From IMG/VR virus record IMGVR_UViG_3300009370_000001: a stretch of 64,000 bases of DNA, one strand, 5' to 3'. Each line of letters opens with the position of its first letter. Position 1 is the stretch's first letter. Source of the DNA: a virus (taxonomy: Duplodnaviria; Caudoviricetes). The translations under genes and the position numbers were made by a program. Positions 45,160-47,244 of the stretch are shown one piece after another. The notes beneath the pieces are model-generated. The model did no database searches. It saw only the letters and a program-made list of their open reading frames with translations, and was not told the origin of the DNA.

Positions 45160-45247
45160 GGCCGAGTGGTGGAATAGGTAGACACACCGGACTTAAAATC
45201 CGTTGATCATTATGATCGTGAGGGTTCAAGTCCCTCCTCGGCTACCA
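45160..45247 (+). tRNA. trnL: tRNA-Leu(UAA), encoded CCA
   Basis: Acceptor GGCCGAG/CTCGGCT, anticodon loop CT-TAA-AA, long variable arm, GAGGG-TTCAAGT-CCCTC T-arm, ACCA. Confidence 0.92.
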
Positions 45248-46144: not shown

Positions 46145-46173
46145 TTGACAAAGAGAAGAAAATGAGATATATT
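46145..46173 (+). promoter_or_regulatory. Sigma70-type promoter
   Basis: TTGACA-17-TATATT. Confidence 0.7.
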
Positions 46174-46622: not shown

Positions 46623-46698
46623 GCGCCGGTAGCTCAGGGGTTAGAGCGTTGTTCTTATAAAGCAAATGTCGGTGGTTCAAGTCCACCCCGGCGTACCA
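46623..46698 (+). tRNA. trnI: tRNA-Ile(UAU), encoded CCA
   Basis: Acceptor GCGCCGG/CCGGCGT, D-arm GCTC/GAGC, anticodon stem TTGTT/AGCAA with loop CT-TAT-AA, T-arm GGTGG-TTCAAGT-CCACC. Confidence 0.9.
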
Positions 46699-46705
46699 TT
46701 TTTTT

Positions 46706-47150: not shown

Positions 47151-47226
47151 GGGTCCATAGCTCAATAGGTAGAGCATCGGACTTTTAATCCGCAGGTCGT
47201 GGGTTCGATTCCCACTGGACCCACCA
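47151..47226 (+). tRNA. trnK: tRNA-Lys(UUU), encoded CCA
   Basis: GGGTCCA/TGGACCC acceptor, loop CT-TTT-AA, GTGGG-TTCGATT-CCCAC T-arm. Confidence 0.95.
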
Positions 47227-47244
47227 TTTTTTTAAGAGAGAACA

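Follow-up and report, generated by a model that had tools for sequence, protein, structure and literature searches.

The 64,000-nt stretch of phage DNA analyzed here (the window) carries a gene for an isoleucine tRNA with a UAU anticodon. The sequence of the gene and its setting in the phage family make it likely that this phage-made tRNA, of the unmodified UAU type, reads AUA and provides a supply of AUA reader that is independent of TilS, as part of a small tRNA island. At the gene level, the window has the composition expected of TilS-independent AUA decoding of the Mycoplasma mobile type: a TAT tRNA gene is present, and no TilS homolog was found within the 64 kb. The features referred to below are the following.

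45160-45247, plus strand: tRNA-Leu(UAA), with a G1.U72 pair; found by ARAGORN and by the full Rfam RF00005 model.
46145-46173, plus strand: candidate sigma-70-like promoter (TTGACA, 17 nt, TATATT; 11/12), from a consensus scan only.
46623-46698, plus strand: tRNA-Ile(UAU), 76 nt, class I, CCA encoded, G1.U72, A73; supported by ARAGORN, Rfam RF00005 and family covariation.
46654-46660, plus strand: anticodon loop of tRNA-Ile(UAU), C32 T33 T34 A35 T36 A37 A38, invariant in nine distinct family copies.
46699-46705, plus strand: run of seven T right after the encoded CCA of tRNA-Ile(UAU), read from the sequence.
47151-47226, plus strand: tRNA-Lys(UUU), then CCA and a T run; found by ARAGORN and by the full Rfam RF00005 model.

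The initial annotation placed a tRNA-Ile with a UAU anticodon at 46623-46698, and both the anticodon and the coordinates proved correct. ARAGORN, the program it had proposed as a check, returned exactly these bounds on the plus strand of the window, with anticodon tat and isotype Ile, and Rfam RF00005 scored the gene at 66.6 bits against a gathering threshold of 29 (E 1.5e-13, model positions 1-71 of 71). As read from the sequence, the acceptor stem is GCGCCGG/CCGGCGT, so that pair 1-72 is G.T; the D stem is GCTC/GAGC, the anticodon stem TTGTT/AGCAA and the T stem GGTGG/CCACC. The variable loop has 5 nt, the discriminator is A73 and the encoded CCA lies at 46696-46698. The TAT anticodon occupies 46656-46658 (plus strand), with T34 at 46656. 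Within the window, a 59-nt core of the gene has a single occurrence; 100 shuffles gave none.

The general scarcity of TAT anticodons in bacterial genomes (PMC8007984), and nothing more, favors reading the gene as an artefact or a dead gene, in which base 34 of a tRNA-Ile2(CAT) or tRNA-Ile(GAT) was misread in sequencing or has lately mutated with loss of function. When IMG/VR was scanned with the 35-nt core of the D arm and anticodon arm, with N at base 34, this base was T in 11/11 matched contigs, each of which has a tRNA-Ile(tat) according to ARAGORN; neither CAT nor GAT was found at the anticodon in any of the 11. An exact 43-nt stretch of the gene had no match in IMG/VR. Nine distinct family copies were aligned and scored against the cloverleaf (alignment A2): 100% of the 189 cells fall in standard pairs, with changes on both sides at 11 of the 21 pairs, whereas none of 500 shuffles scored as high and only 34-50% of cells remained paired when the 3' partners were slid. 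The CTTATAA loop, A73, C4-G69 and U12-A23 are invariant in the nine copies, while pairs 1-72, 5-68, 6-67 and 7-66 vary. Because of this covariation, and because the loop and identity bases stay invariant amid changing neighbor pairs, the gene is, as judged from the alignment, a functional tRNA under purifying selection, neither an error nor a pseudogene. An error or pseudogene at base 34 is ruled out by T34 in all 11 independent metagenome contigs, which recurs in more diverged copies, together with the compensatory substitutions that keep all four stems intact; the probability left to it is practically nil.

A G1-U72 pair had also been pointed out in both the tRNA-Ile and the tRNA-Leu. The pair is indeed present in both, but it is not conserved in the tRNA-Ile family copies: at 1-72, five have G-C, three have A-U and only the window's own has G.U. 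G1.U72 as a conserved trait of tRNA-Ile(UAU) is thus ruled out, and the G.U of the window is most simply taken as an intermediate between the G-C and A-U states. In other tRNAs of the family (L081-L113, L248-L266), G1.U72 was observed in 14/16 distinct sequences of tRNA-Arg(UCU), 8/10 of tRNA-Leu(UAA) and 0/12 of tRNA-Lys(UUU); the tRNA-Arg of T4 has it as well.

Sequence comparison places the body of the tRNA with tRNA-Ile(GAU). Its identity to the tRNA-Ile(GAU) of a Salmonella rrn operon is 75%, the T arms being the same and the D arms nearly so, whereas other tRNAs share only 60-64% with it. Among these are T4 tRNA-Ile(CAU) and the two CAU classes of the family, and for the CAU tRNAs compared the range is 60-62%. 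Its top BLAST matches in isolates are tRNA-Ile(GAT) genes. The identity set of Escherichia coli IleRS, reportedly defined by Nureki et al. in 1994, includes A73, C4-G69, U12-A23, C29-G41, A35, U36, A37 and A38, and is said to have G34 or lysidine at the wobble position. A73, C4-G69, U12-A23, A35, U36, A37 and A38 are present in the window and invariant in the nine copies. At 29-41 the tRNA has G29-C41 in eight of the nine copies and A-U in one instead of C29-G41, and the wobble base is T34 instead of G34 or lysidine. No class I synthetase domain (PF00133) was found in the complete relatives G002-G004. E. coli IleRS is ~360-fold poorer on UAU than on LAU (PMC3575796). With C29-G41 missing and U34 a poor determinant for the E. 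coli enzyme, charging of this tRNA would depend on the IleRS of the host.

These same two departures, in C29-G41 and at U34 (PMC3575796), also lend something to the idea that the RNA does not decode at all, serving as an attachment site, a primer or a regulatory RNA, or that its identity has changed to Met or another residue. We consider this very improbable, in view of the full cloverleaf, the encoded CCA, the invariant A73, C4-G69, U12-A23, A37 and A38, the GAU-type body and the ordinary decoding tRNAs that are its neighbors. It is well established that MetRS requires C34, which argues against a change to Met. A CAU-type tRNA-Ile, by comparison, is charged by MetRS and does not read AUA until TilS has acted (PMC13602947).

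ARAGORN found three tRNA genes in the window: Leu(taa), Ile(tat) and Lys(ttt). The content of the island differs from one relative to another, the set being drawn from Leu(UAA), Lys(UUU), Arg(UCU), Asn(GUU), Thr(UGU), a CAU tRNA and Ile(UAU). The codons served are A- or U-rich and belong to split boxes: UUA, AUA and AAA in the window, with AGA, AAC and ACA in relatives. The match at 46145-46173 is the nearest same-strand promoter match upstream of tRNA-Ile(UAU) and is a candidate promoter, from which a transcript would cross small ORFs into the tRNA. CCA and seven T also end the tRNA-Lys gene (47224-47233, flagged as terminator-like), and the T runs after CCA may be transcript ends or processing sites. 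The ATG of the next ORF (46706) directly abuts the T run 3' of tRNA-Ile(UAU).

Other small RNA genes were observed in the family. A related contig has a one-piece tmRNA gene with the tag ANNNANFDVALAA ~5 kb from its tRNA island (L109:9827-10207, IMGVR_UViG_3300032087_006059). A second tRNA cluster, in the complete genomes G002 and G003, has long (95-96 nt) tRNA-Asn(gtt) genes as called by ARAGORN (L083:1733-1827, L097:2329-2424, L100:1499-1594); they score only 43-48 bits with Rfam, and their length may reflect an inserted segment or an additional arm.

Among the Ile codons of the window, ATA has a share of 16-17%, which corresponds to 9.6-10.3 per 1000 codons overall; in relatives it stands at 9-19 per 1000. 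TTA accounts for 20-21% of the Leu codons in the window. The small genes at 43-64 kb form a GC-richer early zone, in which the use of TTA and AAA falls markedly below that in the remainder of the window; ATA is no rarer there (8.7 vs 9.8 per 1000 elsewhere). From these counts, the view that early genes avoid the codons read by phage tRNAs fits UUA and AAA, but not AUA.

The window has ~46% G+C, and nearly every long ORF is on the plus strand. PHROGs matches include a DnaB-like helicase, a ribonucleotide reductase, a DnaE-type DNA polymerase and a GroEL-type chaperonin. Cultured relatives were found neither by Megablast with the 5 kb around tRNA-Ile(UAU) nor by tblastn with a 1209-aa ORF of the window, and the best cultured-phage match to the DnaE, in Bacillus phages, is 31% identical. 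At least 594 IMG/VR contigs have a DnaE 78-95% identical to that of the window, and complete family members are 195-203 kb long, one of them with direct terminal repeats. On the evidence of these related contigs and complete members, the window is part of the genome of an abundant, uncultured phage of ~200 kb.

A DnaE scan of genome_contigs found only three contigs, L245 and L246 (PBLX01000020.1, PBLX01000048.1) and L247 (PBOB01000035.1). These family contigs (DnaE 64-79% identical) lie inside two Tara Oceans MAGs, Legionellales bacterium SP228 and Acidiferrobacteraceae bacterium RS826, and two different members of the phage family occur in one MAG. Both MAGs are bacterial bins, of 1.9 and 2.7 Mb, with only CAT-type loops for the pattern used. 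The phage contigs in them are probably mis-binned DNA. Legionellales or Acidiferrobacteraceae was rejected as a host call, because binning is not evidence of a host.

Some relatives have another kit for AUA in the same place. The complete genome G003 (IMGVR_UViG_3300025096_000001), whose DnaE is 80% identical to that of the window, is without a tRNA-Ile(tat) and has the following feature in its island.

L248:1414-2022, minus strand: mini-TilS ORF, 202 aa; match to TIGR02432 (lysidine_TilS_N) at 114.3 bits (cut-off 93.6).

This ORF sits 12 nt upstream of a tRNA(cat), and the pair spans L248:1326-2022. The mini-TilS was found in 18 IMG/VR contigs, with further loci at L250-L264; in 12 of the 18 it is followed by a tRNA(cat). 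It consists of one domain, without CTD1 and CTD2, which bacterial TilS uses to choose its tRNA; for that reason the type I/II architecture of bacterial TilS does not apply to it (PMC11947777). The one-domain TilS of the Pseudomonas jumbo phages PA5oct and MIJ3 (PMC6892783) is of the same kind: over its full length the mini-TilS is 43% identical to a 203-aa PA5oct protein annotated as tRNA(Ile)-lysidine synthetase. TilS of the PA5oct/MIJ3 type is the alternative kit of sister phages and is not present in the window.

The two kits did not occur together. None of the 18 mini-TilS loci has a TAT tRNA, and a TilS gene is missing from all 13 TAT loci, of which the window's is one. In whole records, mostly fragments, PF01171 was absent from the nine with a TAT tRNA (G002, G008-G015) and the TAT-tRNA pattern from the eight with TilS (G003, G006, G007, G016-G020), 17 records in all. 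The complete genome G004 has neither TilS nor a TAT tRNA, and a class A tRNA(cat) alone. The suggestion of the initial annotation that the phage bypasses TilS thus survives in a weaker form, in which the alternative of sister phages is a mini-TilS with a tRNA(CAU), never co-occurring with the UAU tRNA. This mutual exclusion could also mean simple redundancy, not a limit set by TilS.

DnaE of family members is 72-81% identical to that of the window, and 72-73% in the TilS-bearing G007, G017 and G018. In the DnaE tree these three form a clade of their own, while G003, which has TilS as well, is placed with the TAT genomes in a group whose branching order the tree does not resolve. Because G003 groups with TAT genomes and the other TilS phages stand apart, the tree indicates that the AUA kit has changed state at least once among close relatives.

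Two classes of tRNA(CAU) can be distinguished. Class B follows the mini-TilS and has G4-C69, U29-A41 and often G1.U72 or A1-U72. Class A, in TAT genomes and G004, has an acceptor beginning GGGCC or GGGCT, with C4-G69 and C29-G41, and resembles T4 tRNA-Ile(CAU), its acceptor stem being T4-like. The E. coli TilS determinants are C4-G69 and C5-G68 (PMC12514573); class A has the former throughout and the latter only in the GGGCC variants. We infer that class A is a tRNA-Ile2 dependent on host TilS and that class B is the substrate of the mini-TilS. BLAST of the family CAU tRNAs against E. coli genomes gave only weak matches to tRNA-Asp and tRNA-Met, which assign neither class. Class A stands beside the UAU tRNA in six cases (G002, L103, L104, L107, L108 and L110), so the UAU tRNA is sometimes an addition and not a replacement.

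How the UAU anticodon would help the phage can be framed as follows. A CAU tRNA-Ile would be useless, being charged with Met, until lysidine is made by TilS, and since it needs lysidine, a phage making large amounts of it would depend on the TilS capacity of its host. In Haloarcula, over-expressed CAU-type tRNA-Ile is limited by the supply of the wobble modification (PMC8501985). A UAU anticodon would remove the dependence on host TilS, and bringing a TilS along would be the other way to achieve this. Three routes to more AUA decoding can thus be envisaged: to rely on host TilS, in the style of T4 and G004; to bring a TilS with the matching tRNA, as G003 and PA5oct or MIJ3 may do; or to use a UAU anticodon without any TilS step, as proposed for the phage of the window. 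For this last route the host IleRS would have to accept U34. Two factors might restrain misreading of AUG, as measured for the Bacillus subtilis G34U suppressor: an unmodified U34 pairs weakly with G, and tRNA-Met competes for the codon. In M. mobile and in that suppressor alike, an unmodified UAU anticodon decodes AUA and seldom misreads AUG (PMC3575796, PMC3919564).

The TilS-independent supply proposed here has to be weighed against plain codon supply, according to which the phage simply needs more AUA readers, UAU and CAU are interchangeable, mutual exclusion means that one kit is enough, and there is no link to TilS. In its favor, the island resembles that of T4 in providing for split-box codons that end in A, G004 manages with class A tRNA(cat) only, and TTA and AAA are rare in the early zone. 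The pairing of CAU kits with their own TilS in 12/18 loci is hard to explain if host TilS is never limiting, and the class A tRNA(cat) kept at six TAT loci does not agree with one kit being enough. Plain codon supply is, for these reasons, considered unlikely.

Another explanation is counter-defence. The UAU tRNA would replace or out-titrate a host tRNA-Ile2 that is cleaved or sequestered by an anticodon nuclease or a CreT-like RNA, and its loop would escape recognition. CRISPR-linked CreT toxins sequester readers of AUA and AGA in haloarchaea (PMC8501985), and Arg(UCU) is often found beside Ile(UAU) in the family islands. In addition, phage tRNAs that evade tRNA-targeting defences are known for other isoacceptors. 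The literature searched did not reveal a phage defence in which a nuclease attacks tRNA-Ile2, and the window bears no sign of such a conflict; moreover, sister phages with TilS and a CAU tRNA would be making the very lysidine tRNA that such a defence targets. We judge this explanation quite improbable. The earlier idea of a defence directed at tRNA-Ile2 thus found no supporting evidence, its sole precedent being CreT in haloarchaea (PMC8501985), and a role of tRNA-Ile(UAU) in evading defence has no support.

The TilS-independent supply has partial counterparts in known systems. In M. mobile, tRNA-Ile2(UAU) has a genomic TAT anticodon and reads AUA without lysidine in a replicon without TilS (Taniguchi et al. 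2013, PMC3575796). There, IleRS (Arg865) and the ribosome are co-adapted, whereas the tRNA of the window is phage-borne and must suit the IleRS and ribosome of another cell. The GAU-type body of the window tRNA brings it close to the suppressor of a B. subtilis tilS deletion, a G34 to U mutation of tRNA-Ile1 in which a body of this type also carries UAU (Kohrer et al. 2014, PMC3919564). In that suppressor U34 is unmodified, AUG binding is weak, misincorporation is ~1 in 1000 and growth is near normal (PMC3919564). It is a laboratory mutant, while the gene of the window is natural and conserved in a phage lineage.

Phage T4 has a comparable island: tRNAs for codons that end in A or are rare (Arg UCU, Leu UAA, Thr UGU and others) lie together there, an AUA reader among them, with small stable RNAs nearby. 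The T4 tRNA-Ile, in which CAT was confirmed, differs from the TAT gene of the window, and with CAT it needs host TilS. Both types of tRNA-Ile, CAU and UAU, also occur in Lactiplantibacillus plantarum, to the extent that the accounts in PMC10688831 and PMC3575796 describe the work of Tomikawa et al. (2018), and relatives such as G002 resemble it in carrying both. According to these same accounts, the two genes are chromosomal there, in a bacterium that has tilS and whose IleRS carries Arg at the wobble-contact site; in the relatives they are phage genes, and the identity of class A is a presumed one.

The premise of the initial annotation that UAU anticodons are rare holds for tRNA-Ile(UAU) in bacteria (PMC3575796, PMC8007984) but not for viruses. 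A strict UAU-tRNA pattern (TAGCTCAG, CTTATAA loop, standard T loop) matched at least 117 IMG/VR contigs, whose sources include gut, sea, soil and giant viruses, and ARAGORN confirmed a tRNA-Ile(tat) in at least 113 (113 of the 117 matches listed). Fifteen IMG/VR contigs (L114-L128, e.g. L118, L124 and L125) have UAU-loop tRNAs in which the anticodon loop and the T arm are 20-28 nt apart; this spacing implies a long extra arm, and the tRNA of the window is not of such a type. The literature search found almost nothing on phage tRNA-Ile(UAU), the sole phage-related match being tRNA-Ile(CAU) in L. curvatus prophages. A modest new element is that, judging from these genomes, the UAU tRNA appears to alternate with a mini-TilS cassette inside one phage family.

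A further and doubtful proposal is that three AUA kits may be interchangeable in the same island: a tRNA(CAU) for host TilS, a mini-TilS with its own tRNA(CAU), and a GAU-bodied UAU tRNA. If the hosts had ordinary ribosomes and an IleRS of the ordinary bacterial kind, in which Trp makes the wobble contact, lysidine would then be dispensable for accurate-enough reading of AUA in typical bacteria. If this were true, the phage family would be a natural experiment on why bacteria keep TilS. Lysidine-based reading of AUA is near universal in bacteria and TilS is essential, and phage genomes appear to break this rule routinely. The alternation of the UAU tRNA with mini-TilS points to modification capacity, beyond tRNA copy number, as a bottleneck for AUA-rich genes, and the sister phages offer a concrete, testable contrast. 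Since annotation pipelines call CAU tRNAs 'Met', the capacity of phages to decode AUA goes unrecognised, and models of host prediction or codon adaptation that assume the AUA reader of the host would be wrong for such phages.
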